Positions 2,463 to 54,256 of a DNA stretch of 64,000 nt are shown here, one piece after another (the stretch's first letter is position 1; every line of letters begins with the position of its first letter). The position numbers and the translations under genes were made by a program. Origin of the DNA: Candidatus Magasanikiibacteriota bacterium (GTDB lineage Bacteria; Patescibacteriota; Patescibacteriia; Magasanikbacterales; GWA2-37-8); the NCBI GenBank assembly GCA_016182085.1, contig JACOYB010000004.1, forward strand, positions 75,976 to 139,975, read 5' to 3'. Under the pieces are notes generated by a model. It made no database searches. It was given only the letters and a program-made list of their open reading frames with translations, and was not told where the DNA came from.

Positions 2463-2468
2463 TAAAAA

Positions 2469-2582
2469 AATAACTAGTTTTCAGCAAACAACCTCTCGTC
2501 CGCCTCGGGCGGACTCGGGCGTTCAGATCTCATCCCGACGCGATTCGGGATTCCGGTGTGTTGCTGAAACTAGTTATTTTTT
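2469..2582. terminator. compound palindromic element / bidirectional terminator between convergent arginase-family gene and gatB
   Basis: Outer ~21-bp inverted repeat (aataactagttttcagcaaaca / tgttgctgaaactagttatt) encloses two GC hairpins (tccgcctcgggcgga and atcccgacgcgattcgggat). It fills the whole 120-bp convergent intergenic gap. Confidence 0.55.
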
Positions 2583-4135: not shown

Positions 4136-4218
4136 AATTTAGTCTTATTTATGCGTTAAGATTATCATTTTATAGTTTTTTTGGCAATTTATTTTTTACT
4201 CTTTATCCCAATTCTATA

Positions 4219-4690: not shown

Positions 4691-4749
4691 GATTATTTTT
4701 TAACTAAAATCCTCCATAAATATGGAGGATTTTAGAATATTTTTTTTGA

Positions 4750-5511
4750 TTACATTTGTTGAGAAGGTGGAGTGGAAGGCAAAGCAGATACCGGATTCTG
4801 TTTAGCGCTATAGTATAAAATAAGCATAGCGGCTGTAGAAAGAGGTGCCACCAAAACGGTTCCAAGGGAAGTAACCACGCTTGCCACTCCGCCTTTTAAA
4901 AATTCGGTAAGCGGTAGTAGATCAACTAAGGATGCGAGGACGTAAAAGAGGGCAAGATTGATGGCGCCAAATATCACATTAGGCGCCACGATTTTCCAAG
5001 CAATAGACCACCATCGTCCAAGTACGAGCGATTTACTGGTCTTTAGGGCAGCCATGCCTTTCTGGTTCTCAAAAATCATTACATATACATAAAAGCTATA
5101 CCATACGGTAAAGATTATGCCTGGAATGAGTAGTAATAAAAACCCGCCGATAATAATTAAGCCCGAAAGCAGAGAAGTATAGATGAAAGGCCAGATTAAC
5201 GGGCTGGACAAAGAAAAGTTTTCTCTCCAGTTTGTGGTTTGTCCGGACAAAAGACCGGATAGCGCCTTTGCCATGGCAATCGTTGTCCAAATGTTAAGTA
5301 CAATGGTAGCTACGCCCACAACTGTTATAAGCAGGTTTGTAGGTAAAGAGGATTTAGGCACAATGACTTCTAAGTATAGAGAAATAATGCCCAAAAGGGA
5401 TAGTGCGACTGTAGGAAGGAACAGAAGACCCAGGTATGGGACAAGGGCTCGCCAATTTTTGATATATAAATGGAAACTATTGCTAATAATTTCCCCTGCT
5501 GATTTGAGCAT
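4750..5511 (-). CDS. polytopic membrane protein, function unknown
   Basis: 253 aa with about six predicted TM helices. No recognisable catalytic motif. Confidence 0.55.
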   Translation of the reverse strand: MLKSAGEIISNSFHLYIKNWRALVPYLGLLFLPTVALSLLGIISLYLEVIVPKSSLPTNLLITVVGVATIVLNIWTTIAMAKALSGLLSGQTTNWRENFSLSSPLIWPFIYTSLLSGLIIIGGFLLLLIPGIIFTVWYSFYVYVMIFENQKGMAALKTSKSLVLGRWWSIAWKIVAPNVIFGAINLALFYVLASLVDLLPLTEFLKGGVASVVTSLGTVLVAPLSTAAMLILYYSAKQNPVSALPSTPPSQQM

Positions 5512-6710: not shown

Positions 6711-7640
6711 TTAAACAGCGATCGGTGCTTTAATAGGTGGATCTGGGTTGTAGTCAACAAGTTCAAAATCTTCAAATTTAAAACCAAAGATATCTTTTAT
6801 ATCCGGATTAATTTTCATTTGAGGTAATTTTTTGGGAGTTCTAGATAGCTGTTCTTTCACTTGCTCAAAGTGATTGCGGTAAATATGAACATCACCAAAT
6901 GTATGAATAAATTCCCCAGGTTCCAGCCCGCTTACCTGCGCGATCATCATCGTAAACAAAGCGTATGATGCGAGGTTAAATGGTACGCCTAAGAAAACAT
7001 CCGCACTTCTTTGGTAAAGCTGGCAAGACAGTTTGCCATTGATAACCATGAATTGAAATAATGTATGGCATGGTGGTGGAGCGCTGTGGTGAGCACGGAT
7101 TAGTGTTTCAATTTCACCTACATTCCAGCCATTGATGATAATGCGGCGTGAAGTTGGATCGTTTTTTATTAAATCAAGAACAAGGTTTATTTGGTTAATT
7201 TCTTTACCATCTTTGGTACCCCATTTAACCCACTGTTTGCCATAAATCGGTCCTAGATCACCCCATTGTTTAGCAAACTGTTCGTCAGATTTCATGCTGC
7301 CGATAAATTTTTCAAATTCAACATTCCAGTTTTCTGAGTAGCGCGGAAAATCTTTTTCTAAATTATTTTTTTTAAGATAGTCGGCAAAAGCCCACTCATT
7401 CCAGATTTTTACGTCATTGTCTATCAAAAATTTAATGTTGGTATCACCACGTAAAAACCAAAGCAGTTCGTAAATAATTGCTTTGAGGTGGACTTTTTTG
7501 GTAGTCAGTAGAGGAAAGCCGTCAGCTAGATTTGCTCGGTATTGATATCCAAAAACACTGCGGGTACCTACACCAGTCCGGTCATTCTTATCTGTTCCGT
7601 TTTCATATAAGTGCCTTAACAGATCAAGGTATTGCTTCAT
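6711..7640 (-). CDS. thyA: thymidylate synthase (ThyA type)
   Basis: 309 aa. Contains catalytic PPCH and the [18 protein letters not shown]-type core. Confidence 0.95.
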
Positions 7641-11149: not shown

Positions 11150-11287
11150 TGTCATTCCCGCCGAAGCGGGAATCTAGTATCCGGTTGGGGTTGTCTCTGG
11201 ATTCCCGCTTCGGCGGGAATGACAGGTGTAGATCCCTCCGCTGTGGTCGGGATGACAATGAAACAATCCCGCTTGTGGCGGGACTGC
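11150..11287. repeat. palindromic hairpin-pair repeat element, copy A1 (two units)
   Basis: tgtcattcccgccgaagcgggaatc...gattcccgcttcggcgggaatgaca, then agatccctccgc...ggtcgggatgacaatg plus hairpin tcccgcttgtggcggga. Same family as 30902, 32057, 36567, 45190 and 45780. Confidence 0.85.
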
Positions 11288-12513: not shown

Positions 12514-12566
12514 TCTCAAAAAATAATTTTTACAAAACGCCGTTTTTATAAACGGTGTTTTGTTTT
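12514..12566 (+). repeat. terminator-like hairpin module, copy 1 (direct repeat with 13055-13100)
   Basis: aataatttttacaaaacgccgtttttataaacggtgttttgtttt repeated almost exactly ~540 bp downstream. Each copy is followed by a TTGAC(A/T)-17-(TACGAT/TTTAAT) promoter. Confidence 0.6.
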
Positions 12567-12626: not shown

Positions 12627-12938
12627 ATGAGAGTAGTAATTTCTCGGGAGAAGCTTCTGCTCGTGCGTACCGTGGAGTGTGGTCGTTACGTCATACTGCG
12701 CCAGGTGACCAGGCTAAACGGTCGGGTTCTCTCAAGGTTGAGTTTTCATCTTGGCGAGAAGTACCAAACATCTTTTTCAAAGGTGTTTACCTTGGAGCAG
12801 GCACAGGCGCTGTTCAAATCGGCAAAACTGCAATCCACACTCAACATGAGTGATAAAGAAGTAGAAGGCTTGTATCAACAACTGGGGGAGTTGTTCCCAG
12901 ATCCAGCGTCGTATTTGACGCAAGCTGGATCTAACTAG
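12627..12938 (+). CDS. hypothetical protein
   Basis: 103-aa ORF downstream of the first repeat/promoter module. No motif recognised. Confidence 0.35.
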   Translation: MRVVISREKLLLVRTVECGRYVILRQVTRLNGRVLSRLSFHLGEKYQTSFSKVFTLEQAQALFKSAKLQSTLNMSDKEVEGLYQQLGELFPDPASYLTQAGSN

Positions 12939-13054: not shown

Positions 13055-13100
13055 ATAATTTTACAAAACGCCGTTTTTATAAACGGTGTTTTGTTTTATT
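13055..13100 (+). repeat. terminator-like hairpin module, copy 2
   Basis: Near-identical copy of 12514-12566. Followed by TTGACT-17-TTTAAT and the 13155 ORF. Confidence 0.6.
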
Positions 13101-14439: not shown

Positions 14440-15384
14440 TTATTTTCCTTCATACGCCTCTCTAAGTTTTGCAATATCAAACTTTTTCATCGGTAAAAAT
14501 GCCTGCGTTACTCGGTTAATTTGTTCGGGCGTGCCATTTTGCATCATCTCGTCCATAGCCGAGGGGACGATCTGCCAGGAAACGCCATATTTGTCTTTGA
14601 GCCAGCCGCACTGCTCGGATTTGGGCACAGCCGAAAGTTTTTCCCAATAGTAATCAATTTCTTCTTGGGTATCACAATGTACGATAAATGAAACCGCTTC
14701 GTTAAATACAAACTTGTGCATGGCGCTGCTTCCATCCATTGCCGCAAACCACTGACCCTCAAGCTGAAAATCGGTAAGCATGATCGCGCCTTCTTTGTTT
14801 GATTCCCCGCCCGCATCGCTACGGGAAGCATTGTGGGCAGGCATGCCAGCGGGATAGCGGGCAATTTGTCCGCGCTTTGTATTTTTGAATACGGAGAGAT
14901 AAAAATTTGTCGCTTCCTCTGCTTTGTCGCCTATATCGGTAACAAAAAGTAATGATGGAATAATGGGCGGTCGTCTTTCGCCTTCTGGATTAGTAAGAAT
15001 CAACTGCCAATCCAAACCGTATTTATCGCTCACCCAGCCATATTTTTCAGCGAATGGGTATTTCTGGAATTCCATCCGTACGTTTCCGCCATCGGAAAGT
15101 TTATCCCACAGTTCACCGATTCTCTTGCGCGCCTCTGTATCCTGCGAAGGATCAAAATTAACCATGAGGGAAATTGATGGGTTGAATTTAAAGAACGGTC
15201 CGGCGCTGATGGCTATAAACGAATACCCCCAGAGTTTAAATGATACTATATCGCAGTCACCGGATGGCGTGTCGCGGATTGTTTTTACATTCGTAATTTT
15301 TGAATCCGGGAACAGCGAGGTATAAAATTCGGCAGCCTCTTTGGCTTCTTTGTCGTACCATAAATGCGGAATAATTTTTTGCAT
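14440..15384 (-). CDS. tandem VOC-superfamily (glyoxalase/PhnB-like) domain protein
   Basis: Two repeated halves, each with IIPHLWYD / W..DKYGV.WQI-type motifs seen in PhnB-like proteins. Confidence 0.65.
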   Translation of the reverse strand: MQKIIPHLWYDKEAKEAAEFYTSLFPDSKITNVKTIRDTPSGDCDIVSFKLWGYSFIAISAGPFFKFNPSISLMVNFDPSQDTEARKRIGELWDKLSDGGNVRMEFQKYPFAEKYGWVSDKYGLDWQLILTNPEGERRPPIIPSLLFVTDIGDKAEEATNFYLSVFKNTKRGQIARYPAGMPAHNASRSDAGGESNKEGAIMLTDFQLEGQWFAAMDGSSAMHKFVFNEAVSFIVHCDTQEEIDYYWEKLSAVPKSEQCGWLKDKYGVSWQIVPSAMDEMMQNGTPEQINRVTQAFLPMKKFDIAKLREAYEGK

Positions 15385-30901: not shown

Positions 30902-30974
30902 TGTCATTCCCAACGAATTGGGAATCCAGTATCCGGCCGAATTGTCTGGATTCCCGCTTGCGGCGGGAATGACA
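30902..30974. repeat. palindromic hairpin-pair repeat element, copy A2
   Basis: tgtcattcccaacgaattgggaatccagtatccggccgaattgtctggattcccgcttgcggcgggaatgaca. ~80% identical to the A1 first unit. Immediately 3' of trpS. Confidence 0.85.
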
Positions 30975-32056: not shown

Positions 32057-32186
32057 TGTCATTCCCCTAACAAGGGGAATCCAGTATTCGATCGGGTCGA
32101 CTGGATTCCCGCTTTGGCGGGAATGACAGTTGGGACAGAGATCCCTCCGCGGAGTTTATACCCTTTAGGGTGGTCGGGATGACAAT
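32057..32186. repeat. palindromic hairpin-pair repeat element, copy A3 (two units)
   Basis: tgtcattcccctaacaaggggaatccagtattcg...ctggattcccgctttggcgggaatgaca, then agatccctccgcggag...ggtcgggatgacaat. Lies between rlmH and trpS. Confidence 0.85.
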
Positions 32187-33273: not shown

Positions 33274-33333
33274 ATTTGTAGCTTAGAGCGTTCATTGACA
33301 ATCAACCAAATACTCACAGACAGGAAGTACCAC

Positions 33334-35670
33334 ATGTCGAAGAAAAGAGATCAGCGCGTCTATTTTTTGAGCGAGATCGCGTACGACGCTCACTTCTTCA
33401 ATGCGGATGCCTATGAGAATTTGGTCAGGTTCCTTGAACAGGATCCCGACGATATCATGCTGGTGGTTGATGGCGCCTTAATTCGCCTCGATCGTCCAGA
33501 AATTCTCAACAGCCTCCTGACGTATTGGGAAAAGAGCGAGAAGGAGTGCCGCAAGGCTAGTGACTTAGTGCCTAATTACGAGCAGAGCCAGAGCATGTTG
33601 AAAGTGCAAATGGAAATCTTGGATAAACATCTGGCTAATCTGCGCAAGCGTTTGCCTGAAGCCAAGATTGTGCTGTGTGTTGATAATGACGATACTCAAT
33701 ACACGGTTTCTCGCATACTTTTGGATCTTCTCATTCATCGCCGCGCCCAAATTAATATGGCCATCAAGGAGATGGTCAAGGAAAAGAGGGGCTTGGCTAC
33801 GGAGTATAAAAAACTCCGGAAGGAATACCGAACCAAGAAGTTCGTTTCTGGAAAGCGCAAGGCAAAGCGCCGGACGATCAAGAAACAACGCCGCGCCCTC
33901 AAGAAAATGGAAGCAGAGATCGTGGCGAGCAAGCAAGAGCTGACTTTGTATCGGGCGCAGAAGATTCGTCCGACGCATCAATTCGTAACGGCTACGTTTG
34001 TAAAGCACCTGATGCAAATGTACAAGGATATTTGCATCAAGCATGAGGTTGAGTTCATGGATCGGCCGCAGGTTCTGCGGTTTGGTAAATCGGAAAGTGA
34101 TCTGACGGTGAAGTATGCGCATAGCGGCCATAAGACTTGGATGCCGGTGCTTCATCGAGATCATTCCTTGGTTCGTTCGGTGCTGGCTAACCAGAACAAG
34201 TACAATAATCTGATTAAGCAGGTGGCTAGCGAAGCTGAGGCGCAGCAGTTCAATGTTTGTGTTGAGAGCGGGCACCATGGAATTGGCTTTGCTACCCTGC
34301 AGAAAATCAAGGACCATCTTCAGGAGACCAACTTTAAGGGGAATTCTGCCTACGATCCAGTGATTGCCGGCTTGAAAGATTACGTGAAAATCTGTTTGGC
34401 AATTCCCTTTGAAGACCAAGAGCTTATTGTGCGGTTTTTGGAGAACCAAGAGCCGGTTCGCATGAGCCTGGGTAAGCCGGGCGGTACAAGGAGTCACGAA
34501 GTCTTCCGTCGTCTCCACAACGGAAGTGTTTCTGGTTTGTTCATGCTTACTAAGAGTGCCAGTGATGGTCTCCTTTGGACTCGATACATCCAGTATCAGG
34601 ACTTTAAGGATGGATCGGTTCTCAATCAGCCAAGTCGCTACTTTGCCGCGTGGGTTACTTCCGATGAGCACTTGGGTTCTCCGGAAGAAAATCCCATGGT
34701 GCGAGATGGTCTGTTCGCCCTCTGTAAGGCGCATGCCGATAATCCATTTAACTTCTACGGTCGGCCAACTGAGCTCGCGTCGTTTATCAGCGGCGGCGAT
34801 ACTTCGGAAGCAACGCTCATCAGGTGGGATCGTCGGTACGATGATCGGCGTGACCCGCAAGAGCTTCTGCAAGAAAATATTGGCAAGTTGGCTAACTTGG
34901 ATCAGGAAAATAGGGAAGAAATTCTTGAGTTAGCCGCCAAAATGGTGAGCGATACAATGAGCGGCTACCCGGGCAGTATGCGAGTGATGTTGGAAAGAGT
35001 GGCCAGGTACTATCAGCAGTTCCTGGATATTACTCTGTCGGTGAGCAAGTCCAAGTGGGCACATCTCTCTGTTCCCGGAAATCACGCAGACGGCGTGTTG
35101 CGTCAAACTGGTTTGCGGGAAACGGATTTTTTTGCGAGAGATGTTAAAGCCCAAGGGGTTGGAGTGTACGAAGTCGGAGTGTCTGATCACTATAGGGCTG
35201 ATTCAATGCAAGGGGCGCGTGTTGGTTTGGGTGGGTATGGTGATGCTCGTATTATCCATATTGAGGATTACGGGCATGGTGTAGATGGCGAGGCATTGTT
35301 CGGTCCAATCAGCTTGTTGATTCAGCATGATCCTGAAGGGCCCGGTACAAGCGGACTGGTTGGCGCAGCGGAAAAAGTAGGCGCAGATGTGGCGCTGGCT
35401 GGCCATGTTCATGAGAATTGGGTAAAGCTGTTCCGGATTGGACTCAACCAATTCAGGGTGGCCTACCGACTCTCTACCGTTCAGGGTGTAACCATGACGG
35501 AAAAGAAGTATGCCAGCTCACCGCCGCGAACGCAGGCTGCACACTGTATTATCATGCCTAAGCCGGGTGATTTTGCAGAAAAAGCTCTGCCAGCTGCGTA
35601 CCTGCGGGAAGTGGGTGTACGGTACAACCTGCAGAAGGTTGAAGAAGAAATTGCCAAGAAAGATACGTAA
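33334..35670 (+). CDS. large metallophosphoesterase-motif protein with KR-rich coiled-coil insert (GC-rich island gene)
   Basis: 778 aa from the ATG with AGGAAG SD (the ORF track starts at an upstream TTG). Calcineurin-like motifs LVVDGALIRLD, GNHADG and AGHVHENW, separated by a long K/R-rich coiled coil (KEKRGLATEYKKLRKEYRTKKFVSGKRKAKRRTIKKQRRALKKMEAEIV). GC content well above the local background. Confidence 0.55.
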   Translation: MSKKRDQRVYFLSEIAYDAHFFNADAYENLVRFLEQDPDDIMLVVDGALIRLDRPEILNSLLTYWEKSEKECRKASDLVPNYEQSQSMLKVQMEILDKHLANLRKRLPEAKIVLCVDNDDTQYTVSRILLDLLIHRRAQINMAIKEMVKEKRGLATEYKKLRKEYRTKKFVSGKRKAKRRTIKKQRRALKKMEAEIVASKQELTLYRAQKIRPTHQFVTATFVKHLMQMYKDICIKHEVEFMDRPQVLRFGKSESDLTVKYAHSGHKTWMPVLHRDHSLVRSVLANQNKYNNLIKQVASEAEAQQFNVCVESGHHGIGFATLQKIKDHLQETNFKGNSAYDPVIAGLKDYVKICLAIPFEDQELIVRFLENQEPVRMSLGKPGGTRSHEVFRRLHNGSVSGLFMLTKSASDGLLWTRYIQYQDFKDGSVLNQPSRYFAAWVTSDEHLGSPEENPMVRDGLFALCKAHADNPFNFYGRPTELASFISGGDTSEATLIRWDRRYDDRRDPQELLQENIGKLANLDQENREEILELAAKMVSDTMSGYPGSMRVMLERVARYYQQFLDITLSVSKSKWAHLSVPGNHADGVLRQTGLRETDFFARDVKAQGVGVYEVGVSDHYRADSMQGARVGLGGYGDARIIHIEDYGHGVDGEALFGPISLLIQHDPEGPGTSGLVGAAEKVGADVALAGHVHENWVKLFRIGLNQFRVAYRLSTVQGVTMTEKKYASSPPRTQAAHCIIMPKPGDFAEKALPAAYLREVGVRYNLQKVEEEIAKKDT

Positions 35671-35733: not shown

Positions 35734-36984
35734 TTAAATCCATTTATTTTTTAATTCCATAAATTTATTTTCCTGTATCGCGGTTCTGGCTTGGCGCATC
35801 AAGTCAAGCATGAAAAATAAATTGTGAATGCTAGACAAGCGCATAGCCGAAATTTCTCCGGCATTAAACAGATGGTGCAAATAGGCGCGTGAATAATGTT
35901 GACAGGTATGACAACCGCAATTGGGGTCTACGGGGCCGCTGTCTGTTGCGTATTTTTTATTGGTAATATTTATTCTCAACTTTTGTTCTTCAGTTGGACC
36001 GACAAATAGCATGCCGTGGCGGGCTAGTCTGGTTGGAGCCACGCAATCAAACATATCCACGCCATGTTCTATGGCAATGAGCAGATCGGTAGGTGACAAG
36101 CCAATGCCCATGGCATAGTGCGGTTTATTTTCCGGAATGAGCGGAAATACCCAATCCAAAATATCTTTGGTCGCCTCCATATTGTAGCCAACCGATTCGC
36201 CGCCAATCGCAATGCCATCAAAATCCAAAGATGAAATATATTTGGCAGATTCCTGGCGCAAGTTTTTGTATACAGATCCTTGAATAATGCCAAATAAAAA
36301 TTGTTTGTAGTCGCGAGTATTTTGCGCGGATAATTTTTGGTGTTCATCTAACGATCGTTTGGCCCAACGATGTGTGCGTTCCATGGCTTCGCGCGCGTAT
36401 TTTTCTTCTACGCTATCTGGCGTGCATTCATCAAAAGCCATAATAATATCCGCGCCGATTTTATGCTGCGTTTCAACGGCTATTTCGGGAGTAAAACGGT
36501 GTGAGCTGCCATCTATATGAGATTTAAAAGTAACGCCTTCTTCATCTATAGAAACAAGCTGTGCGTTGTCATTCCGACCGGAGTCCGTAGACAGAGTGGA
36601 GGAATCCCTCTCGTCTGGTTTAAGGGATCCCTCGACTGCGCTCGGGATGACAGTTGTTGGCCTTGATCTTTTTTGTTTCCCTAAACTAAACACCTGGAAT
36701 CCGCCACTGTCGGTAAGAATTGGCTTGTTCCAGTTCATGAATTTATGCAGCCCGCCAAATTCGTTAATTAAATCTTCGCCCGGACGCAAATGTAAATGAT
36801 AGGTGTTGCCCAAAATAATTTGGGCGGGCAAGTTTTGCAGATCGGTTTGATCTAACGTTTTAACGGTAGCTTGAGTTCCTACCGGCATGAAAATAGGTGT
36901 CAAAATATCGCCATGATCAGTATGGATTACGCCGGTTCTAGCCCGGGAATTTTCGTCTTTATGCTGTAGTTCAAAAAATGGCAT
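35734..36984 (-). CDS. tgt: queuine tRNA-ribosyltransferase carrying an in-frame repeat-element insertion
   Basis: MPFFELQHKDENSRARTGVIHTDHGDILTPIFMPVGTQATVK, TDSGGFQVFSLG and the zinc motif CGCHTCQHYSRAYLHHL. Start set at MPFFEL. The ORF-track N-terminal extension is unsupported. Contains about 30 extra residues encoded by repeat A4. Confidence 0.88.
   Translation of the reverse strand: MPFFELQHKDENSRARTGVIHTDHGDILTPIFMPVGTQATVKTLDQTDLQNLPAQIILGNTYHLHLRPGEDLINEFGGLHKFMNWNKPILTDSGGFQVFSLGKQKRSRPTTVIPSAVEGSLKPDERDSSTLSTDSGRNDNAQLVSIDEEGVTFKSHIDGSSHRFTPEIAVETQHKIGADIIMAFDECTPDSVEEKYAREAMERTHRWAKRSLDEHQKLSAQNTRDYKQFLFGIIQGSVYKNLRQESAKYISSLDFDGIAIGGESVGYNMEATKDILDWVFPLIPENKPHYAMGIGLSPTDLLIAIEHGVDMFDCVAPTRLARHGMLFVGPTEEQKLRINITNKKYATDSGPVDPNCGCHTCQHYSRAYLHHLFNAGEISAMRLSSIHNLFFMLDLMRQARTAIQENKFMELKNKWI
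36567..36652. repeat. palindromic repeat element, copy A4, inside the tgt coding sequence (in frame)
   Basis: tgtcattccgaccggagtccgtagacagagtggaggaatccctctcgtctggtttaagggatccctcgactgcgctcgggatgaca. Its reverse complement translates as RPTTVIPSAVEGSLKPDERDSSTLSTDSGRNDN between conserved Tgt blocks. Confidence 0.8.
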
Positions 36985-37036
36985 GACCCCATAGTAAAAG
37001 ATTTTGTACAAATAATCAAGATATGGTAGTATGTGA

Positions 37037-38104
37037 TTGTTTATGATGAAAGCAAAGTTGATCCTAAAAGATGGTTCGGTGTTTGAGGGTTTTTCTTTTG
37101 GTTCAGAGACTGGCACCAGTGGTGAAGTGGTATTTAATACAGGCATGGTAGGGTATCCCGAAACCATGACCGATCCTTCATACCGCGGACAAATTTTAGT
37201 AATGACCTATCCGCTCGTTGGAAATTATGGCGTGCCATCTGCAACAAATGCAGATGATTTTTTTAAATACTTCGAATCGGGCGCTATCCAAATCACGGCT
37301 TTGATTGTGAGTGAACAGTGTAAAGATTTTTCTCACTTCAGCGCAACAAAATCTTTGTCGGACTGGATGAAAGAAAACAATGTGCCCGGCATATATGGCA
37401 TTGATACGCGCGCCTTAACAAAAAAATTACGCGCCAGCGGCACCATGCTCGGCAAAATTATAGTTGATGAAACAAGCAATATAGAATTTGATGACCCTAA
37501 CACTCGTAATTTGGCAGCCGAAGTAAGTGTTAAAGAACCAATAAAATATGGCAGCGGGGAAAAGACGGTGATTGTGGTGGACTGCGGCGTGAAAAATAAT
37601 ATTATTCGTTCGTTTGTAAACAGAGGCGTGTCGGTTTTACGAGTTCCTTGGAATTATAATTTCTCGGATACGGCTGCTGATGGCATTTTAATTTCCAACG
37701 GGCCGGGTGATCCAAAAATGTGTACAGACACGATTGCAAATGTTAGGGCCGCGCTTGCGGACAGCCGGCCAATTTTGGGGATTTGTTTAGGCTCGCAAAT
37801 TTTAGCGCTGGCCGCCGGAGCTGATACCTATAAATTAAAATACGGACATCGCGGACAAAATCAGCCATGCGTGGAAATGGGCACGAAAAAATGTTTTATC
37901 ACTTCACAAAATCACGGCTTTGCCGTGGACACAAAAACGCTGCCCGAAGATTGGCGCGAGTGGTTTGCAAATGATAACGACGATACCAATGAAGGTATTA
38001 TTCATATTTCCAAGCCGTTTTTTGGCGCGCAATTTCACCCCGAAGGCGCGCCGGGCCCCGATGACAGTGAATTTATTTTTGATATGTTTATCAGGTCGCT
38101 TTAA
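37037..38104 (+). CDS. carA: carbamoyl-phosphate synthase small (glutaminase) subunit
   Basis: GEVVFNTGMVGYPE, the GICLGSQ catalytic Cys and HGFAV/QFHPE motifs. Confidence 0.9.
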   Translation: MFMMKAKLILKDGSVFEGFSFGSETGTSGEVVFNTGMVGYPETMTDPSYRGQILVMTYPLVGNYGVPSATNADDFFKYFESGAIQITALIVSEQCKDFSHFSATKSLSDWMKENNVPGIYGIDTRALTKKLRASGTMLGKIIVDETSNIEFDDPNTRNLAAEVSVKEPIKYGSGEKTVIVVDCGVKNNIIRSFVNRGVSVLRVPWNYNFSDTAADGILISNGPGDPKMCTDTIANVRAALADSRPILGICLGSQILALAAGADTYKLKYGHRGQNQPCVEMGTKKCFITSQNHGFAVDTKTLPEDWREWFANDNDDTNEGIIHISKPFFGAQFHPEGAPGPDDSEFIFDMFIRSL

Positions 38105-41323: not shown

Positions 41324-43348
41324 ATGATTGATTTTGCCAAAGAATTAAACCCAGAACAATTGGAAGCAGTGTTGCACGGCGATGGGCCGTGTTTAGTTTT
41401 GGCTGGCGCGGGAAGCGGTAAAACTAGAGTAATTACGTATCGTGTAGCCTATCTGTTGGAACAGGGTATAGGCCCAGAAAATATATTATTGGTAACGTTT
41501 ACCAATAAAGCCGCAGATGAGATGGTTCGCCGCATGCAACAGCTGACCGGTTCGGAAAGCCGTTTGCCTTGGGCCGGCACATTTCATCATATTGCGTATA
41601 GAATTTTAAAAATTTACGCGCCGGTTTTGGGGTATAAAAGTAATTTTACGATTTTGGATAGCGATGACAGTGAGACAATTTTAAAATTATGCGCCAAGCC
41701 GTTTAAAGATACAGGCAGAGCCAAGTTTCCTTCGGCGCGAGTATTGCAAAATATAATCAGTTTTGCTCGTAATTCGGAAACGACCATCGCCGATGTGTTG
41801 GATTTAAAATTTCCACAGTGGATGATTTTTGCTGATGAAATTAAAAGCGTGGCGCATGAGTATGAATTGAAAAAGAAAGAGGCAAATGCCATGGATTTTG
41901 ATGATTTGCTGGTAAATTTTTTGGCGCTCTTAAACAATGAATCGGTATTAAAAAAGTACGCTGAGCAATTTATATATATTTTGGTTGATGAATACCAGGA
42001 CACCAACAAAATCCAATCTTCTATTATAAAAAAATTAGCCATCGTGCATGGTAATTTGCTGGTGGTAGGCGATGACGCGCAAAGCATTTATTCTTTCCGC
42101 GCCGCCGATATTGCTAATATTTTACAATTTGAAAAGCAATACCCTAATGCTAAAGTTTTTAAATTAGAAACCAATTACCGTTCCAGCCAGGAAATTCTAC
42201 AGGTCGCCAATGATGTAATTGTAAATAATGTAAAACAATATAAAAAAGAACTCAAAACCATATCAAAAGGCGGACAAAAACCAAGTTTGCATCCGCAGAT
42301 GGATCAAGGCAGCGAAGCGGAATTTGTCGTAAGTAAAATTTTGGAACTGATAGATAAAGGCGTACCGCCAAATGATATTGCGGTACTCTTTCGTGCCAGC
42401 CACCATTCACAGCTGCTGGAAATGGAGCTGGTAAAAGCGGGGATTGCGTATGATTATCGTGGCGGCCTAAGATTTTTTGAACGCGCGCACGTAAAAGATG
42501 TGTTGGCCTATTTGCGAATTTTAAATAACATAACAGACACGGCCGCTTGGATGCGAGTGCTGATGCACGAAGAAGGGATTGGGGCAGTAGCCGCCAGTAA
42601 AATTGTGGAAGCATTAAAAAAAGCGACCAATATAGAAGATATTAAAATAATCGGCCAAGAAGTGTTAGGGCAGAAAGCCAAAAACGGCTGGAATAATTTT
42701 GTGCGCATTTGGGAAAGTATGTTAAGTAACAGTCGCACCGACACCGCGGGACTTATCGCCTCAATTATAGATTCACCGTATAAAGAGTACGTGCAGACTG
42801 AATATATAGACAGTAAGGATCGGTTGGAAGATATTGCGCAGCTGCAAATGTTTGCCCAAAAGTACAATGAGCTGGAACAGTTTTTGGCTGAAGCCACTTT
42901 GCAGGAAGGGTTTAATCGCGGCACGGCAAATCAAAATAAAGATCAGTCAGGGCCAAAAGTTGTACTCTCAACCATTCATCAGGCCAAAGGTTTGGAATGG
43001 TCGGCAGTATTTATTATCAACTTAGCTTCCGGCGCTTTTCCGAGCGACAGAGCGCTTCAAGAAGAAAACGGTTTGGAAGAAGAGCGCAGGTTGTTTTATG
43101 TGGCCATTACCCGCGCGAAAAAGCATCTGCATCTTTCGTATCCAATGGCCGGCGGCTGGGGCGATTCAATGGCCGGCCCAAGTTTGTTTTTAGGTGAAAT
43201 CAGTTCGGATCTTATAGAAGATCATTCGCTTTTATCTTCAAACGGACTAGTTTTAGATGATGAAGATGCGGGTGTGCATTATGAAAGTGAAGACAGGCCG
43301 CTTAAAATAAAACCAGGAAGTTTTTTGCGTAGTTTGGATGATTTATAA
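41324..43348 (+). CDS. uvrD: UvrD/PcrA-family ATP-dependent DNA helicase
   Basis: LNPEQLEAVLHGDGPCLVLAGAGSGKTRVITYRVAYL, VDEYQDTN, LETNYRSSQEIL and the C-terminal VAITRAK. Confidence 0.88.
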   Translation: MIDFAKELNPEQLEAVLHGDGPCLVLAGAGSGKTRVITYRVAYLLEQGIGPENILLVTFTNKAADEMVRRMQQLTGSESRLPWAGTFHHIAYRILKIYAPVLGYKSNFTILDSDDSETILKLCAKPFKDTGRAKFPSARVLQNIISFARNSETTIADVLDLKFPQWMIFADEIKSVAHEYELKKKEANAMDFDDLLVNFLALLNNESVLKKYAEQFIYILVDEYQDTNKIQSSIIKKLAIVHGNLLVVGDDAQSIYSFRAADIANILQFEKQYPNAKVFKLETNYRSSQEILQVANDVIVNNVKQYKKELKTISKGGQKPSLHPQMDQGSEAEFVVSKILELIDKGVPPNDIAVLFRASHHSQLLEMELVKAGIAYDYRGGLRFFERAHVKDVLAYLRILNNITDTAAWMRVLMHEEGIGAVAASKIVEALKKATNIEDIKIIGQEVLGQKAKNGWNNFVRIWESMLSNSRTDTAGLIASIIDSPYKEYVQTEYIDSKDRLEDIAQLQMFAQKYNELEQFLAEATLQEGFNRGTANQNKDQSGPKVVLSTIHQAKGLEWSAVFIINLASGAFPSDRALQEENGLEEERRLFYVAITRAKKHLHLSYPMAGGWGDSMAGPSLFLGEISSDLIEDHSLLSSNGLVLDDEDAGVHYESEDRPLKIKPGSFLRSLDDL

Positions 43349-45189: not shown

Positions 45190-45266
45190 TGTCATCCTGA
45201 ATTCACTTCAGGATCTAAGGGATCAAAAATTGAGATGAGATGCTGAAAACTTGTTCAGCATGACAA
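45190..45266. repeat. palindromic hairpin-pair element, copy A5, in the rpsL-rpsG spacer
   Basis: tgtcatcctgaattcacttcaggatc...gatgctgaaaacttgttcagcatgacaa. Same TGTCAT...ATGACA architecture. Confidence 0.8.
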
Positions 45267-45779: not shown

Positions 45780-45838
45780 CGTCATCCTGAATTCATTTCA
45801 GGATCCTGTGAGATGCTGAAAACTAGTTCGGCATTACA
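45780..45838. repeat. palindromic element, copy A6 (degenerate), in the rpsG-fusA spacer
   Basis: cgtcatcctgaattcatttcaggatcctgtgagatgctgaaaactagttcggcattacaaa. ~85% identical to A5. It shares gctgaaaactagtt with the element at 2469-2582. Confidence 0.75.
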
Positions 45839-45862
45839 AATAAATATTTAGATTTATATTTT

Positions 45863-48094: not shown

Positions 48095-51000
48095 ATGAAA
48101 AGGGAAAAATTTTTTAGTTTGCATTTCCTCCTTATCAAAAAAAGACTAAAGAGATTTTTTTTGTTGAATTTTCTTTCGCAAGAGAATTCATGTCTGAGTG
48201 AGCCACAGCGAGCGAAGGCGATTCTTTATCGCACCCGTCACATAGTTAATAAAAAACAATTTCGCGCCGCGACGGCTGTGGTTTTACTTATAGTTATTTT
48301 GGTAAATGTATTTTTACCTGAACCCGGGCAAATTGCCCAAGCCGCAACCTATACGTTTGTTCAAACCAGCTGGAGCGGGGGAGCAAGCGCCACCGTTCCG
48401 GTACACCCTACCAACCAAACCAGCTGGAATAAATTTTCCACTAGCACTAGTGCCTTCACAACCGGCACTACAACCGTAACTATTGCCAGTACCACATACA
48501 GTTCTACCGACGATGGAACTTTTTCATCTACCGGCAGCGCGACCGGAGGCGGTTTTAATAATGGCACGACTTCATCCGCAGCTGTTTCGGGCAGCGGCGC
48601 TTCAGCTGTAATTAAATTAACAGGGAGCTCAAGTGCGATAAATCGAGTTACCGTTACTTCCTCAAATAATGGTGCGAGCGCTAATTTTCATGGCGCTTCT
48701 CAAGTCGTTGGCGCTTCCGGATCAGATTATTTATATTTTGTTGAAGCCGCCAATGAAGGCAGGGCATTGCGCCGTTATTCTATTTCCGGAAATTCATGGA
48801 CAGATTTGGCGTCTTATACATATGCCTACTTTGGCGCTCAGTTATTATGGAATGGAAGCGATGATTATATGTATTTAGCTGAAGGCCAAAGTACTGCCTT
48901 TGTTCGTTATTCCATTTCCGGCAATTCTTGGTCATCTATGACTGCTATTCCAGCAGCACTGCCTACCGGCATTACCCAAACGGCCGCTTTGCGCTATGGC
49001 TCAGAAGATTATATCTATCTTTTTAGAGGCGCGGGGCAAACAGCATTTTATCGTTATTCAATTAGTGGAAATAGTTGGGGCACCATGACTGCATTGCCAG
49101 TCGCAGCCGATGTCGGTATCCAAGCTGTCAGAGATGCAGATGGCGATTATATTTATGTGATTACCGGAAATAGCACAGCTTTTTATCGTTATTCTATATC
49201 CGGAAATTCCTGGTCTCATATGGCTTCTAGTTCTGTAAGTCTCACCGGTAACAACGCCAGTGTTTTGCATGATGATGGCAGTGATTATATTTATCTTTTA
49301 ACTAATAATAGTTTCCTTAGATACTCCATTTCCGGAAATTCATGGTCAACTATGGCAGATGCTTCTTCAGTAAATCCTGATTTTGGTTCAACTTTAATCC
49401 ACCCTGCAGGAGGAGATGTTATATATGCGACAGGTGAGTGGGATTGTTGTGGCGCGGTAAGGGTGTGGGGGTACTCTATTTCTGGCAATAGTTGGACAGG
49501 TTACCATATAACTGCGGGTCATTCCGGTGGTTATGGCGCGCCAAATAAAACCGCATACTTAAGATCGGGCGATGAATCATTTTATTTTTTTACTGCCAAT
49601 CAGGATAATGAACTGTTTAAATACACCATGACCGAAACCGTTTATAACACTACGGGTACTTTTACTTCTGCGGCCATGGATTTGGGCGTAGCCGAAATGA
49701 AAAATTTGTCTTGGACCAGCACAACTCCGTCCGGAGTGGGTAATGATGCGATTAAATTTCAACTCGCAGCCAATAATGACAACAGCACCTGGAGCTATGT
49801 TGGCCCAGATGGAACAACTGCTACTTACTTTATAAATAATGGCTCTACTTCATTCCCATCATCTTTTCTTAATAAAAGGTATTGGCGTTATAAAGCGTAT
49901 TTAGGCACATCTAGTACCAGCGCCACGCCATCGCTGGATAATGTTACATTTTCTTATTCTTCTTACGCAACCTCCAGTTATCTTACTTCTTCTATGTACG
50001 ATGCGGGAGATCCAACTAATGTGCTCGCCAGTGTTGCTTGGAATCGGGTGGAGCCGACCAGTACGACAATTAAATTCCAGCTGCGTACCGGTTCTAGCAC
50101 TTCCAGTCTTAACACAGCTGACTTCGTTGGCCCAAGCGGTGTCAGCACGACTTACTTTACTACCAATACCGGAGAAAATACTTCTTCCACCATGCGTGAC
50201 GGATCTAACGATCGCTATTTTCAATATAAAGTTTATTTAGAAACCACAAATCGCGCCTTTACTCCTACGCTCATCGGCGTTACAACCACCTATGTAGTTA
50301 ATGCCAGTCCGGAAATACAAAATGCTTCTTCCAGTCAAATGGCCAGCGGTACGGTATCTATTACTTATCAAGTACGTGACTCAGATACAGATACTGGCAC
50401 AATAAATCCTGGGTATGTGAGCTCTACCTTTGAATATTTAGATGCGGCTGGCGCGTATCAGGTTATTCCAACTAGCCAGCTTTCTTCGGGCGCCAATACC
50501 GTGGCTGTAGACGATGTAAATTGGACTACAAGCAGTGTTACTTGGACTCCGCCGGCAGGTTTAAGTATTGCGGCCAGTAGAATTCGCGTAACATTAAATG
50601 ATAATGAGGCAGCAAATAATACTACGAGTACGATTTCAAATACGTTTCAATTAGATACCGTCACGCCAGCCTCAGGCGCGATTGTGGTGGACGGTTCGCA
50701 AACGTCGGCTTTGGTTACACTTACTGCCGTAGATAGTTCAACTCTGTATATGAAAGTGTCGCTAAATAGCACGCTTTCCGATGTTTCCAGCTGGTCGGCA
50801 TTTTCGGCTACGACCACAATTACCTTAACTTCAAATCCGGCCACCGTATATGTGCAATTTAAAGATGGGTTTAATAACACGTCCAGTATTTTTAGCGCCA
50901 CCACTCCGGAAACACCGAGCAGCACCATAGTTCAAGATATTTCTAATCTGGTAAACGGTATAACCGACTATCGTCTTTTCGTAGCTTGGAAAGTAATAAC

Positions 51001-54000
51001 TACTCCTAGCCCAGGGTTTGCTAATTACATAGTGTATAGATCGCCTGATCAATCTGTATGGACGCCGGTTGCCACCAATACTACCATCACCAACAATTAT
51101 ATTGCGGATAGTTCTGTAGTTTCTAATACGCTTTATTATTATAAAGTGAAATCAACGGATTCTTCAGGCAATGTTTCTATATTTTCATCTATAGTAAACG
51201 GCCGCGCTAACGGTGATCAAGATGCGGGTGAAGGCGGTGGTGGCGCCGGTCCGCCTATAATTACCAGCGTGGCAACCTCTTCGCCAACACCTTCTTCAAT
51301 TACCATTACTTGGAATACGGATGTGCTATCCAATTCCATTGTTGGATTCTCCACCACGGCAGGTAATTTTACCGATAATTCAGTGACGGTCGGTACGATG
51401 GTAGATAGTTCTTCCGGATCCATAGGTCCTCATACCGTAGTTTTGGGAGGACTCACGCCAAATACCACTTATTATTTTAATGTAAAATCCGTTACGGCAG
51501 CTAGTGCTTCCACCACCGAAAATAATGGCGGCAACGGATATATATTTAGAACGCCCAATGGTTCAACCATCACCGGTGTTTCAGCCTCGGAAGTTTATAA
51601 TACCTCTGCGAGAATCGTTTGGAATACTTCGGAAAATGCCGATAGCACCGTCTATTATTCCACTTCCACCAATTTATCAAACGCAATTTCTACCAGCTCA
51701 TCCGCGCTTGGCACATCGCATGATATAACGCTCACCGGACTGACCGGCGGCACGCGATATTATTTTTATGTTCAGTCTGTAAACGCGTCCCAGGTAACTT
51801 CTACAGATAAAAATTTAGTGAGCGGTGTTTATGAATATTATAATTTAGCCACCACGCTTGATACGACGGCGCCGACCATTTCTTCCATTGCCACCACAAC
51901 CAGCAATAATTCTTCAAATGTTACGTGGGTTACAAATGAAGTTGCTAACTCTCAAATAATATACGGTACAACTACCAATTACGGATCCACTACCACCTTG
52001 GATTCCACCTATACCACTCAACATCTTGTGACGGTCGCTGGCCTCGCTTCATCTACGCTGTATCACTTCAAAATTTTATCAAGAGATAAAAATGATAATT
52101 TAACCTCTTCCACCGACCAGGTAATAACCACATCCGCGGCTCCAGATGCGACGGCGCCGACAATTACCAGCGTCACTACTTCCAGCGTGACGCTTACTGG
52201 AGTTACGATTACCTGGTCAACAAACGAAAATGCCAGTTCTATTGTGGAGTATGGTCTGACTACATCTTCATATAACTATATTGCTGGTTCTAATACCACA
52301 TCGGTTACTTCACACTCTGTGTCTTTAACGGGATTAAGCGGCAATACTACATATTATTTCCGAGTCAGATCCACGGACTCATCTGGAAATGCTGGGCTCG
52401 ATGATAATAACGGCAATGGCTGGAGGTTTGTAACCGTGGCCGATACGACCGCTCCGACGATTTCTAATGTTACAATTTTAGTTAATAATACTTCTTCAAT
52501 TATTACTTGGACTACCAATGAAGCCGCCACTTCGGAAATTAACTATGATACAACTGCCGGAGTCTATGGCGCTACGGTTTCAAGTTCCACCCTTAATACC
52601 GGACATTCAATTACGCTTACCGGATTAACGGCAAATACCACCTATTATTTCCGTATCAGATCTGCAGATGCTTCCAGTAATACTAGTACGGATAATAACG
52701 GCGGCACGGGTTATAGCTTTACGACGCTGGCGGCGCCAGTTACGGTTATTGGCGGCGGCGGAAGCGGGGCGGCCGTGGATAGGGATCCGCCGTCTATTGC
52801 AAATCTTAGCATTACTGATATTACGCCAATTTCAGCAAGTGTATCTTGGAGCACAAATGAAGAGGGGAATTCTTTAATACGTTATGGTTCAACAGTCCAG
52901 TATGGAACCTTGGTTGGAAATGATGAACAATTATTATCATCTCAACATAATGTAAAACTGTTTAATTTGAAACCCGGACAAACGTATCATTTGAAAGCAG
53001 TTACCTATGATGCGGCCGGCAATCGTTCCGAGTCGCAAGACCAGATATTTACCACTCTAAATGCTGATGGTACGCAAGCAACTTCAACTGCCACTACAAC
53101 TACTGCTACAAGCACCCAAGATAGCGAGTTGCCTCCAGAAACACAATTTATATCAGAATCTTTGCAAAAAGCCTCAAGCCGATCTCTGCAGCAATTTTTG
53201 AAAGATATAGCGTCCAATCCGCTGCTTAAAGATATTCCGGAAGATAAATTTATTCAAGCATTGCTTGAAATGGCCAGTAAAGTTATAGAGGCGCCGACCA
53301 TTGTCGGTATTAAGCCAACCGTGGAGGTAAGGGGCACTACGGCAATTATTACCTGGTCTACGGATAAAAAATCGACTTCCGAAGTCAACTTTGCCAAAGA
53401 TAGTAATTATAAGCCTGCTGATCGCAGTCCGTACACCAATGCTGCGGTGAACCCCGATGAATTTGGGCTTGCTCATAGAGTAGAATTAACCGGTCTTGAT
53501 GCGGGTATTCTGTATCACTTTAAAGTGATATCCCGCGGTTTAATTGGCCCAGAAGCCTCTAGCGCTGATTTTACGTTCCGAACCTCGGGCGAGTTGCCGG
53601 CGATTTCCGATATACGAGTTACCAGACCTACGAATACTCAATCCATGGTAGTGGTGGGCTGGAGAACTAATGTTCCGACAGCCGGTACCGTAGAGTATAA
53701 GAATGCCAGATCCGGCCAATCCTTAACTCAAGGAGACGCAAGTTTGCTCATCAACCACGAGGTTACTCTGAAGTCGCTTGAAGGTGGAATAAATTATACA
53801 TTGGTTATAAAAGCTAAGGATGAATTTAACAACGAAGTTTCCAGTTTGCCGATAACATTCTCTACTTCGCTTGATAAGGCTCAACCAACCATTTCCAAAC
53901 TCTCTTCAGATTCCACATTATATCCTGGCAGAGATTCCAAAGTGCAGACAATTATTTCTTGGGAAACCGATGAACCGGCCACCTCGCAAGTATTCTATCA

Positions 54001-54256
54001 AGAAGGATTATCTGGTGATAATATCGTATCATTACCTTTGGACACGGCCTTAAATACCAGACATATTGTTGTGGTAACGAAATTTAAACCTGGTACGGTC
54101 TATAAATATTGGGTAGAATCCAAAGACTTGGCCGGCAATATGGCCAAATCCGAAGTATTCTCAATCCTGACGCCGCAAGAAAAAGAAACTATCATTGATA
54201 TTATTATCAATAATTTCCAATCAGTATTCGGCTGGACCAAAAATATTGGAATCTAG
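48095..54256 (+). CDS. giant membrane-anchored surface protein: six-blade YSISGNSW-repeat propeller plus ~10 fibronectin-III-like domains
   Basis: 2053 aa. N-terminal TM anchor (AATAVVLLIVILVNVF). Six ~55-aa repeats each containing (Y/F)(R/V)YSISGNSW(S/T). Then repeated ~95-aa modules with (I/V)TW.TNE...S...YG.T..Y......H.V.LTGL...TTYYF(R/K)(V/I)(R/K)S.D.SGN. S/T-rich linkers. Confidence 0.85.
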   Translation: MKREKFFSLHFLLIKKRLKRFFLLNFLSQENSCLSEPQRAKAILYRTRHIVNKKQFRAATAVVLLIVILVNVFLPEPGQIAQAATYTFVQTSWSGGASATVPVHPTNQTSWNKFSTSTSAFTTGTTTVTIASTTYSSTDDGTFSSTGSATGGGFNNGTTSSAAVSGSGASAVIKLTGSSSAINRVTVTSSNNGASANFHGASQVVGASGSDYLYFVEAANEGRALRRYSISGNSWTDLASYTYAYFGAQLLWNGSDDYMYLAEGQSTAFVRYSISGNSWSSMTAIPAALPTGITQTAALRYGSEDYIYLFRGAGQTAFYRYSISGNSWGTMTALPVAADVGIQAVRDADGDYIYVITGNSTAFYRYSISGNSWSHMASSSVSLTGNNASVLHDDGSDYIYLLTNNSFLRYSISGNSWSTMADASSVNPDFGSTLIHPAGGDVIYATGEWDCCGAVRVWGYSISGNSWTGYHITAGHSGGYGAPNKTAYLRSGDESFYFFTANQDNELFKYTMTETVYNTTGTFTSAAMDLGVAEMKNLSWTSTTPSGVGNDAIKFQLAANNDNSTWSYVGPDGTTATYFINNGSTSFPSSFLNKRYWRYKAYLGTSSTSATPSLDNVTFSYSSYATSSYLTSSMYDAGDPTNVLASVAWNRVEPTSTTIKFQLRTGSSTSSLNTADFVGPSGVSTTYFTTNTGENTSSTMRDGSNDRYFQYKVYLETTNRAFTPTLIGVTTTYVVNASPEIQNASSSQMASGTVSITYQVRDSDTDTGTINPGYVSSTFEYLDAAGAYQVIPTSQLSSGANTVAVDDVNWTTSSVTWTPPAGLSIAASRIRVTLNDNEAANNTTSTISNTFQLDTVTPASGAIVVDGSQTSALVTLTAVDSSTLYMKVSLNSTLSDVSSWSAFSATTTITLTSNPATVYVQFKDGFNNTSSIFSATTPETPSSTIVQDISNLVNGITDYRLFVAWKVITTPSPGFANYIVYRSPDQSVWTPVATNTTITNNYIADSSVVSNTLYYYKVKSTDSSGNVSIFSSIVNGRANGDQDAGEGGGGAGPPIITSVATSSPTPSSITITWNTDVLSNSIVGFSTTAGNFTDNSVTVGTMVDSSSGSIGPHTVVLGGLTPNTTYYFNVKSVTAASASTTENNGGNGYIFRTPNGSTITGVSASEVYNTSARIVWNTSENADSTVYYSTSTNLSNAISTSSSALGTSHDITLTGLTGGTRYYFYVQSVNASQVTSTDKNLVSGVYEYYNLATTLDTTAPTISSIATTTSNNSSNVTWVTNEVANSQIIYGTTTNYGSTTTLDSTYTTQHLVTVAGLASSTLYHFKILSRDKNDNLTSSTDQVITTSAAPDATAPTITSVTTSSVTLTGVTITWSTNENASSIVEYGLTTSSYNYIAGSNTTSVTSHSVSLTGLSGNTTYYFRVRSTDSSGNAGLDDNNGNGWRFVTVADTTAPTISNVTILVNNTSSIITWTTNEAATSEINYDTTAGVYGATVSSSTLNTGHSITLTGLTANTTYYFRIRSADASSNTSTDNNGGTGYSFTTLAAPVTVIGGGGSGAAVDRDPPSIANLSITDITPISASVSWSTNEEGNSLIRYGSTVQYGTLVGNDEQLLSSQHNVKLFNLKPGQTYHLKAVTYDAAGNRSESQDQIFTTLNADGTQATSTATTTTATSTQDSELPPETQFISESLQKASSRSLQQFLKDIASNPLLKDIPEDKFIQALLEMASKVIEAPTIVGIKPTVEVRGTTAIITWSTDKKSTSEVNFAKDSNYKPADRSPYTNAAVNPDEFGLAHRVELTGLDAGILYHFKVISRGLIGPEASSADFTFRTSGELPAISDIRVTRPTNTQSMVVVGWRTNVPTAGTVEYKNARSGQSLTQGDASLLINHEVTLKSLEGGINYTLVIKAKDEFNNEVSSLPITFSTSLDKAQPTISKLSSDSTLYPGRDSKVQTIISWETDEPATSQVFYQEGLSGDNIVSLPLDTALNTRHIVVVTKFKPGTVYKYWVESKDLAGNMAKSEVFSILTPQEKETIIDIIINNFQSVFGWTKNIGI

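Follow-up and report, generated by a model that had tools for sequence, protein, structure and literature searches.

Palindromic repeats that are dispersed between genes and also lie in frame inside housekeeping genes are known from Rickettsia as Rickettsia palindromic elements (RPEs; Ogata et al. 2000, as cited in PMC10969869). In Neisseria, the dRS3 repeat is part of a 28-nt hairpin, the NTS (CGTCATTCCCGCGMAVGCGGGAATCYRG), which is bound solely as single-stranded DNA (ssDNA) by SsnA, a 94-aa single-domain GIY-YIG protein that cuts a few nt upstream of the hairpin. Bacterial ssn genes are typically flanked by 'Ssn-related motifs' (SRMs), Rickettsia being among the genomes richest in them, and the NTS-ssnA-NTS arrangement has been likened to an insertion sequence (Chenal et al. 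2025, PMC11893778). The present study concerns an 86-bp palindrome, TGTCAT...ATGACA, inside the tgt gene of a metagenome-assembled genome (MAG) of the Magasanikbacteria, which belong to the candidate phyla radiation (CPR). It lies in a stretch of 64,000 nt of the Candidatus Magasanikiibacteriota contig JACOYB010000004.1, taken on the forward strand and referred to below as the window. Judged from comparisons of sequences, the insert is very probably a hairpin pair resembling a MITE (miniature inverted-repeat transposable element), which stems from the ends of an Ssn cassette, lacks the ssn gene, and is tolerated as a floppy loop of the protein.

By behaviour, the element can be likened to the RPEs, since its family has intergenic copies as well as in-frame copies that are read as an extra peptide seemingly compatible with the fold. 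It differs from them in its phylum (Patescibacteria/CPR), in its length (63-121 nt for the elements considered here, about 100-150 bp for RPEs), in being traceable to the ends of a nuclease-gene cassette, and in that one protein loop has been struck repeatedly by different subfamilies. With the NTS/dRS3 and SRM-SsnA system it shares the hairpin (TGTCATTCCCGCCGAAGCGGGAATCTAG in the window, as compared with the NTS) and, in relatives, a small gene of the single-domain GIY-YIG type that is flanked by a hairpin on either side. However, PMC11893778 covers repeats around genes and transformation, with no mention of copies within open reading frames (ORFs) or of CPR, and the tgt copy and most CPR copies miss the strict SRM pattern by their loops and bulged stems.

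Bacterial MITEs (Correia, ERIC, Coxiella QMITE, and cyanobacterial elements; PMC10969869, PMC5896051, PMC3184786) form the comparison set of elements that insert into ORFs. They are likewise short and non-coding, have terminal inverted repeats, share their ends with a longer element that carries a gene, vary in presence and absence among relatives, and give occasional in-frame fusions; in contrast, no target-site duplication is seen here and the partner gene is of the GIY-YIG type, not a DDE or Y1 transposase. In the system of repetitive extragenic palindromes (REPs), bacterial interspersed mosaic elements (BIMEs), and RAYT genes, inverted hairpin pairs also flank a small gene of the ssDNA-hairpin nuclease type, and the hairpins are massively amplified without the gene. 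REPs are extragenic by definition, however, and the gene considered here is GIY-YIG, not Y1/HUH (IS200/IS605-like), with GTCAT heads instead of GTAG; as neither a Y1 (HUH) gene nor a GTAG-type head was found, the element is not assigned to that system. The tgt element is RPE-like in behaviour, and by sequence and gene association it belongs in the NTS/SRM-Ssn system. Intragenic Ssn-type hairpins or such inserts in CPR are not mentioned in PMC11893778 or in a 2024 review of prokaryotic MITEs, and an incomplete literature search on palindromic or in-frame inserts of CPR, on RPEs with GIY-YIG genes, and on follow-ups of Ssn found nothing relevant.

The hairpin pair inside tgt

The true start of the tgt coding sequence is MPFFELQ at 36984; extension of the ORF to 37167 was rejected as a spurious N-terminal addition that overlaps carA on the opposite strand. 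The product is 100% identical to an NCBI Magasanikbacteria MAG protein named Tgt (P0001), matches the Pfam family TGT with E=4e-147, and matches Z. mobilis TGT in the PDB with E=8e-107. Over 120 homologues, the catalytic Asp (D92, in TDSGG) and the residues of the zinc site (C356, C358, C361, and H387) are invariant, so that the fold, the catalytic Asp, and the Cys/His motif of a Tgt are all present. The preliminary description, which was made from the DNA letters, had called tgt an essential gene, but it is not known to be so; E. coli tgt mutants are viable.

The same description had placed an 86-bp repeat in frame and stop-free inside the minus-strand tgt, together with its peptide, and all of this was borne out. 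The element (TGTCATTCCGACCGGAGTCCGTAGACAGAGTGGAGGAATCCCTCTCGTCTGGTTTAAGGGATCCCTCGACTGCGCTCGGGATGACA) begins with TGTCATTCCGACC, ends with CTCGGGATGACA, and lies wholly within the minus-strand ORF 35734..37167 with no stop in frame; the peptide RPTTVIPSAVEGSLKPDERDSSTLSTDSGRNDN is present in the Tgt translation, flanked by TDSGGFQVFSLG and IDEEGVTF. Its GTCAT...ATGAC core measures 84 bp, or 28 codons. The element is composed of two hairpin modules (Table 1). In relatives, intergenic copies have a hairpin, 'TGTCATTCCGACCGAAGTGGAGGAATC', that the ends of module 1 match, the loop of the module being expanded; this assignment is based on the copy at L004 2665, on the right arms of the L006 and L007 copies, and on exact matches of 14-15 nt (L001-L008 are eight syntenic relatives).

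Folded as RNA, the element pairs from one end to the other (-40.3 kcal/mol, z = -3.5). Introns in rRNA genes are a known feature of CPR genomes, and with so stable a hairpin (-40 kcal/mol) the 86 nt might be thought to be removed from the transcript in an intron-like manner, or bypassed, giving a protein without the insert. This is hardly credible, since 86 nt is far below the size of group I or II introns and an Rfam search of the window returned only a tRNA, with no family match at the element; moreover, the frame is open in diverged copies of three genomes and the intragenic cores are multiples of three, both of which would be needless if the insert were removed.

The proposal of a dispersed palindromic repeat family also held. 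The pattern TGTCATYCC-N50-80-GGRATGACA has four matches in the window (the tgt copy and those at 11150, 30902, and 32057, i.e. three of the four are intergenic) as compared with 0 in 100 shuffles, and lone hairpin modules are found at 11231-11257 and 32140-32184. Hairpins at 11150, 11197, and 32101 match the NTS consensus with 2-3 mismatches, where 0 such matches are expected. The likeness of the tgt element to the intergenic copies is significant rather than a matter of chance.

The structure of the window Tgt was modelled with AlphaFold2, using the 120-sequence alignment. The model has a mean pLDDT of 86 and a pTM of 0.86, and its TM-score against Z. mobilis TGT is 0.93, normalised to the target. 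Residues 97-141 are the sole segment with pLDDT <50. The model thus shows a normal Tgt fold from which the insert loops out as a disordered segment, in agreement with the loop position suggested earlier. Because it follows the substrate-binding DSGGFQ segment, the loop would be placed on the catalytic face of the barrel.

The Tgt loop in relatives

In the alignment with Z. mobilis TGT, residues 1-103 of the window Tgt correspond to 19-113 and residues 143-411 to 114-373, which leaves residues 104-142 as a 39-aa gap between positions 113 and 114 of the Z. mobilis protein. The loop was also aligned codon by codon on the DNA of the eight syntenic relatives (Table 1). The element is absent from the close orthologue and from those with short loops, and the loops of relatives without it (12 or 20 residues) are unrelated to the insert in sequence; an equivalent loop of similar sequence was not found in them. 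The net gain in length is 29 codons over the 12-residue loops and 21 codons over that of L002. The expected indel is real, but it is not the clean, coextensive one of about 30 residues that had been foreseen, as it amounts to 39 aa against Z. mobilis and to 29 or 21 codons against relatives.

For a survey of this loop, the 120 best Tgt homologues were aligned. The loop, bounded by L101 (invariant) and L143 (nearly invariant), mostly has 11-12 residues (GLQKDATINNKK) within a range of 7-64, and in 45 of the 120 homologues it exceeds the mode by at least 15 residues. At least 19 of these 45 long loops bear peptide signatures of GTCAT...ATGAC elements (VIx...xND, SSR...ND, and SFR...DD), for example VIPS...RND, VILS...QND, SSRA...RND, and SFR...RDD, each being an element read in one frame. 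Other repeat families are seen at the same loop, e.g. ISPLPRGSAEGV...LNPSLERRGD, and some relatives have inserts at two more sites, after residue 215 and after residue 324. UvrD of L006 (gene 1927-4110) contains two in-frame hairpin-pair inserts of 24 and 26 aa. As with the RPEs, in-frame copies in tgt (window, L003 twice, L004, L005, and L007) and in uvrD (L006 twice) occur along with intergenic copies, near-identical ones being found in syntenic relatives; in L005 the tgt insert and an intergenic copy 3 kb from it have nearly the same sequence. From these alignments, the Tgt loop is a recurrent insertion hotspot and not the site of a single event.

In L002, UvrD (3304-5460) carries two short inserts other than these, SATSPLNGVSGPASGGEG and PGTRAASAAQYGAGN, and UvrD of the window (41324-43348) is without inserts.

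In the window and its eight relatives, the length of the core is divisible by three for 7 of 8 intragenic copies and for 2 of 10 intergenic copies (Fisher p = 0.008, the copies not all being independent). About 37% of the reading frames through the elements have no stop. A filter by which only frame-preserving copies remain in genes would give this excess.

The window and L003 agree in each of the left 37 nt of the element, although the genes are 74.6% identical (p about 2e-5), and the central peptide of the insert differs between the two. Therefore, the arms appear to be under DNA-level constraint or homogenisation, rather than selection on the peptide. The insert might also have been co-opted: its loop could confer a new property on Tgt, for instance the binding of tRNA or of a partner close to the catalytic face, or its hairpin DNA could serve the cell as an Ssn site that modulates recombination around tgt. 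Co-option is improbable: the inserts derive from unrelated repeat subfamilies and vary in length and sequence, the central peptide is unconserved even among the orthologous inserts of the window, L003, and L004, the segment is modelled as disordered, and many close relatives have no insert. It would nevertheless accord with a loop that follows the substrate-binding segment on the catalytic face, with the occupation of this site in many lineages, and with the role of NTS repeats in Neisseria, where they modulate the integration of transforming DNA (PMC11893778).

The association with ssn cassettes

The relatives L002 and L005 each encode a small GIY-YIG protein (Pfam PF01541). The L002 cassette (14803-15159) is arranged as TGTCATCCCGACCGCAGCGGAGGGATCCCTTAAc - ssn (96 aa) - tAAGGGATCCCTCCACTGCGGTCGGGATGACA, with the hairpins inverted. 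Both of its ends match module 2 of the tgt element (36620-36652) over 31-33 nt, with 91-94% identity and, in a search of the window, E 2e-8 to 3e-7; when the two ends are joined, the alignment extends over the entire tgt element. The end of the same cassette is 96% identical to the hairpin at 11231-11257. The cassette occupies the spacer syntenic to window 32057-32184, where no ssn gene is present; ssn may have been lost from this window site, or may never have reached it. In L005, the ends on either side of ssn (about 7100-7490), GAAGGATCCCTTTA / TTAAGGGATTCTTCG...CTCAGAATGACA, match both the L005 tgt insert and the intergenic copy 3 kb from it. The cassette ends and the short elements co-vary by genome. 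The assembly holding L004 also carries an ssn gene (L011).

The L002 protein is 54% identical, over 94% of its length, to a 94-aa ORF of N. gonorrhoeae (E=1e-23). This ORF has Y6, Y17, and E64 as described for SsnA and is accompanied by 9 NTS copies within 1085 bp, and by these features it is the SsnA orthologue. The ssnA orthologue of this gonococcal locus (L009, NZ_CP119140.1 1881857-1882941) is missing from the gene table as distributed; the locus comes from a chromosome mislabelled as a plasmid, the plasmid collection listing two complete gonococcal chromosomes in this way. Matches of the GIY-YIG protein in NCBIfam and the PDB are weak (UPF0213 structures and a group I intron endonuclease model); more than 580 relatives of it are present in GTDB genomes from many phyla. 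The layout GTCAT-hairpin - ssn - hairpin-ATGAC was seen in 14 of the 16 CPR ssn loci inspected, each with its own sequence variant, the exceptions being L016, which has no upstream hairpin, and L024, whose flank is masked as N. Many of these loci have subterminal CCCTTA(A)/(T)TAAGGG motifs.

The published SRM pattern, HGTCWYN(0-2)YYVSBRHN(0-5)WNVSBRGN(0-2)RNCYNB, was compiled by hand from 29 genomes belonging to 4 phyla. As a search tool it proved too narrow, with one match in the window, and it was replaced by the NTS consensus with mismatches and by direct alignment. The hairpins show the features of the NTS, with a GTCAT-type 5' flank and a C immediately following the palindrome (…GGGAATC); the arms of the tgt copy are TGTCATTCC...GGAATC and GATCCC...GGGATGACA.

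These comparisons link the recently described ssDNA nucleases of the SsnA family with repeats that add loops to conserved proteins. The tie of the repeat to a GIY-YIG ssn gene, as well as its recurrence at the Tgt loop, is what the preliminary description missed. They also bear on whether the loop evolved in place with a chance likeness to the repeats, or reflects an assembly error or a pseudogene. The length of the loop does vary even where repeats are not recognisable, as in the 20-residue loops of L002, L006, and L007. However, the matches to the cassette ends are significant and 0 pattern matches are expected by chance; an assembly artefact is excluded because the same tgt sequence is found in the independent Logan assembly SRR12113430, and homologous inserts come from independent samples; and the ORF is intact in a gene with 84 invariant columns across the 120 homologues. 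Such explanations are extremely improbable and, within the limits of sequence evidence, already refuted.

Several observations weigh against the proposed nature and history of the insert. The strict SRM pattern is matched neither by the tgt copy, which fails at loop and bulge positions, nor by the copies of relatives, and in the window it fits the hairpin 30946-30974 only. No ssn gene was found in the 64-kb window by tblastn. The GTCAT ends around ssn point outward in CPR but inward in N. gonorrhoeae, and SsnA is reported only as a nuclease, with no transposase or strand-transfer activity known (PMC11893778). A target-site duplication was not seen at any of about 19 copies; in these, T always stands before GTCAT and A always after ATGAC, and this constant pair may belong to the inverted repeat itself, or it may be a TA target that was split. 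The junctions, when compared with empty alleles, are not clean, the flanking loop residues being remodelled (RSRPTT / NAQ in the window, DATI / NNKK or DNREEK...PQGQ in the others). Because these residues differ between alleles, the exact insertion point is only inferred. Finally, the junctions are common to the window and the distant L003 and L004 and are not found in the closest relative, L002, which requires either loss in several lineages or transfer by recombination.

Two readings of the empty site were considered and set aside as unprovable from such short sequences: insertion at ATT/AAT of the DATI/NNKK loop, and leftovers of the 20-residue loop that are read in a different frame (with TCAAGGCCAAC in common). 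The element-free 20-residue loops of L002, L006, and L007 contain small palindromes (e.g. GCAGACCCATCTGC in L007); a speculative view is that these loops are scars of older, internally deleted elements. A search for the exact junction CCAACAACTGTCATCCCGAG in metagenomes gave 5 matches, all intergenic in unrelated high-GC organisms and 0 in tgt; they are uninformative and compatible with chance, as TGTCATCCCGAG is common.

The shared junctions raise the possibility that the occupied tgt allele was imported from a more distant member of the Magasanikbacteria by short-patch homologous recombination, e.g. natural transformation. The window tgt is 89% identical to that of L002, yet its junctions and flanks are those of L003 and L004, which are 75-77% identical, and the divergence from L002 is concentrated at two sites where one of the two genes has an insert. 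On the other hand, the sequence directly after the element is identical to that of the clade-A relative L007 and not to L003 or L004, which would limit an imported patch to about 110 nt and leave it homologous arms of very short length. Import is therefore conceivable but rather doubtful; it concerns the route only and would leave the nature of the element, as a hairpin pair from cassette ends, unchanged. Over their first ~260 nt, the tgt genes of the window (35734-36984) and L002 (10001-11272) are almost identical, and they diverge sharply (~70% identity) in patches at the two loops where one has an insert, a mosaic that suggests recombination or mutagenic insertion and excision.

Other features and the proposed origin

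Table 1. Coordinates and properties of the hairpin elements, the tgt gene, and the Tgt loop in the window and in syntenic relatives.
Feature	Location	Position	Strand	Properties
Intergenic copy	Window	11150..11257		NTS-like hairpin pair 11150-11224 and single hairpin 11231-11257
Intergenic NTS-like hairpin pair	Window	30902..30974
Intergenic hairpin pair and second hairpin	Window	32057..32184		SPOUT-methyltransferase/TrpRS spacer
tgt coding sequence	Window	35734..36984	-	416 aa, MPFFELQ start to stop
Tgt residues 104-142	Window	36559..36675 (codons)	-	39 residues without counterpart in solved bacterial Tgt structures; in the segment modelled as disordered
Palindromic element TGTCAT...ATGACA	Window	36567..36652		86 bp; in-frame reading TVIPSAVEGSLKPDERDSSTLSTDSGRND
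Hairpin module 1	Window	36567..36610	+	TGTCATTCCGACC...GGAGGAATC, GTCAT end outward
Hairpin module 2	Window	36620..36652	-	TGTCATCCCGAGCGCAGTCGAGGGATCCCTTAA on the minus strand, with subterminal CCCTTAA motif (family D9)
Element for another Tgt loop	L003	905-997
Element for another Tgt loop	L007	10612-10674
NTS-type pair in uvrD	L006	3811-3876		Read as SVIPATAGIQTTVHWIPNQVGND
Second uvrD element	L006	2548-2624
Tgt loop	L001, L008			12 residues, no element
Tgt loop	L002			20 residues, no element; nearest relative, 89% nt identity
Tgt loop	L006, L007			20 residues, no element
Tgt loop	L003, L004			Element, 75-77% nt identity; junctions as in window, CCAACAAC/TGTCAT ... ATGACA/ACGCAC; interior nearly as in window in L003, different in L004
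Tgt loop	L005			Element of another subfamily, a few nt from the window site

Within the conserved str operon, the rpsL-rpsG and rpsG-fusA spacers contain hairpin pairs of a second GTCAT...ATGAC family (GTCATCCTGAATTCACTTCAGGATC ... GCTGAAAACTTGTTCAGCATGACA), at 45190-45266 and 45780-45839. These pairs also look like insertions, as the rpsL-rpsG spacer of L008 has only 39 nt. A perfect 39-nt direct repeat (TTTTACAAAACGCCGTTTTTATAAACGGTGTTTTGTTTT) at 12528-12566 and 13059-13097, each copy of which is a terminator-like hairpin, flanks a small ORF (12627-12938). The interval that separates tgt from the SPOUT methyltransferase gene holds, on the opposite strand, a 791-aa ORF (33295-35670) with no Pfam match; it has counterparts of 778-933 aa in L002, L005, and L007 and none in L001, L003, L004, L006, and L008, and by this distribution it is a lineage-specific gene insertion beside tgt. 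An ORF of 2053 aa (48095-54256) contains internal periodic DNA repeats (~132-147 nt and ~285-295 nt spacing) and its product is probably a large surface protein with repeats, comparable to the 2041-aa fn3/Pur_ac_phosph_N protein beside fusA in L008.

A proposed history of the tgt insert, as a hairpin pair from cassette ends, can be described as follows. The two inverted terminal hairpins of a hairpin-ssn-hairpin cassette would have been joined tail to tail with the ssn gene absent, and a copy would then have landed in the short surface loop of Tgt after the substrate-binding TDSGGFQ segment. This copy may have survived because its 84-nt core consists of whole codons, its frame is free of stops, and the loop tolerates extra residues. 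The insert would now be read as roughly 29 extra hydrophilic and disordered residues with no required function, and its hairpin arms may be kept alike by gene conversion or DNA-level constraint while the peptide drifts. The spread of the elements probably proceeds through the action of the Ssn nuclease on ssDNA hairpins, or through nuclease-stimulated recombination, and occupied alleles may also pass between lineages by short-patch recombination.

In-frame 'coding palindromes' occur and recur in the tiny genomes of Patescibacteria, beyond Rickettsia. Such inserts inflate protein lengths and disturb the alignments, phylogenies, and structure predictions of marker genes from MAGs; they also mark natural permissive sites in enzymes, e.g. 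Tgt and UvrD. A candidate parent element is the cassette in which hairpins flank an ssn gene of the SsnA family, a group of ssDNA nucleases that was described in 2025. Variable presence and absence, ends that co-vary genome by genome, and ssn-less derivatives are the genomic evidence to be expected if the cassette is mobile. A more tentative scheme, which is possible but not the probable one, would regard hairpin-ssn-hairpin cassettes as a new kind of mobile element driven by a GIY-YIG ssDNA nuclease, and their ssn-less derivatives as a general source of bacterial coding palindromes, both in CPR and perhaps among the Rickettsia RPEs. If this is true, Ssn would be the missing mobilising enzyme for repeats that remodel the loops of conserved proteins.

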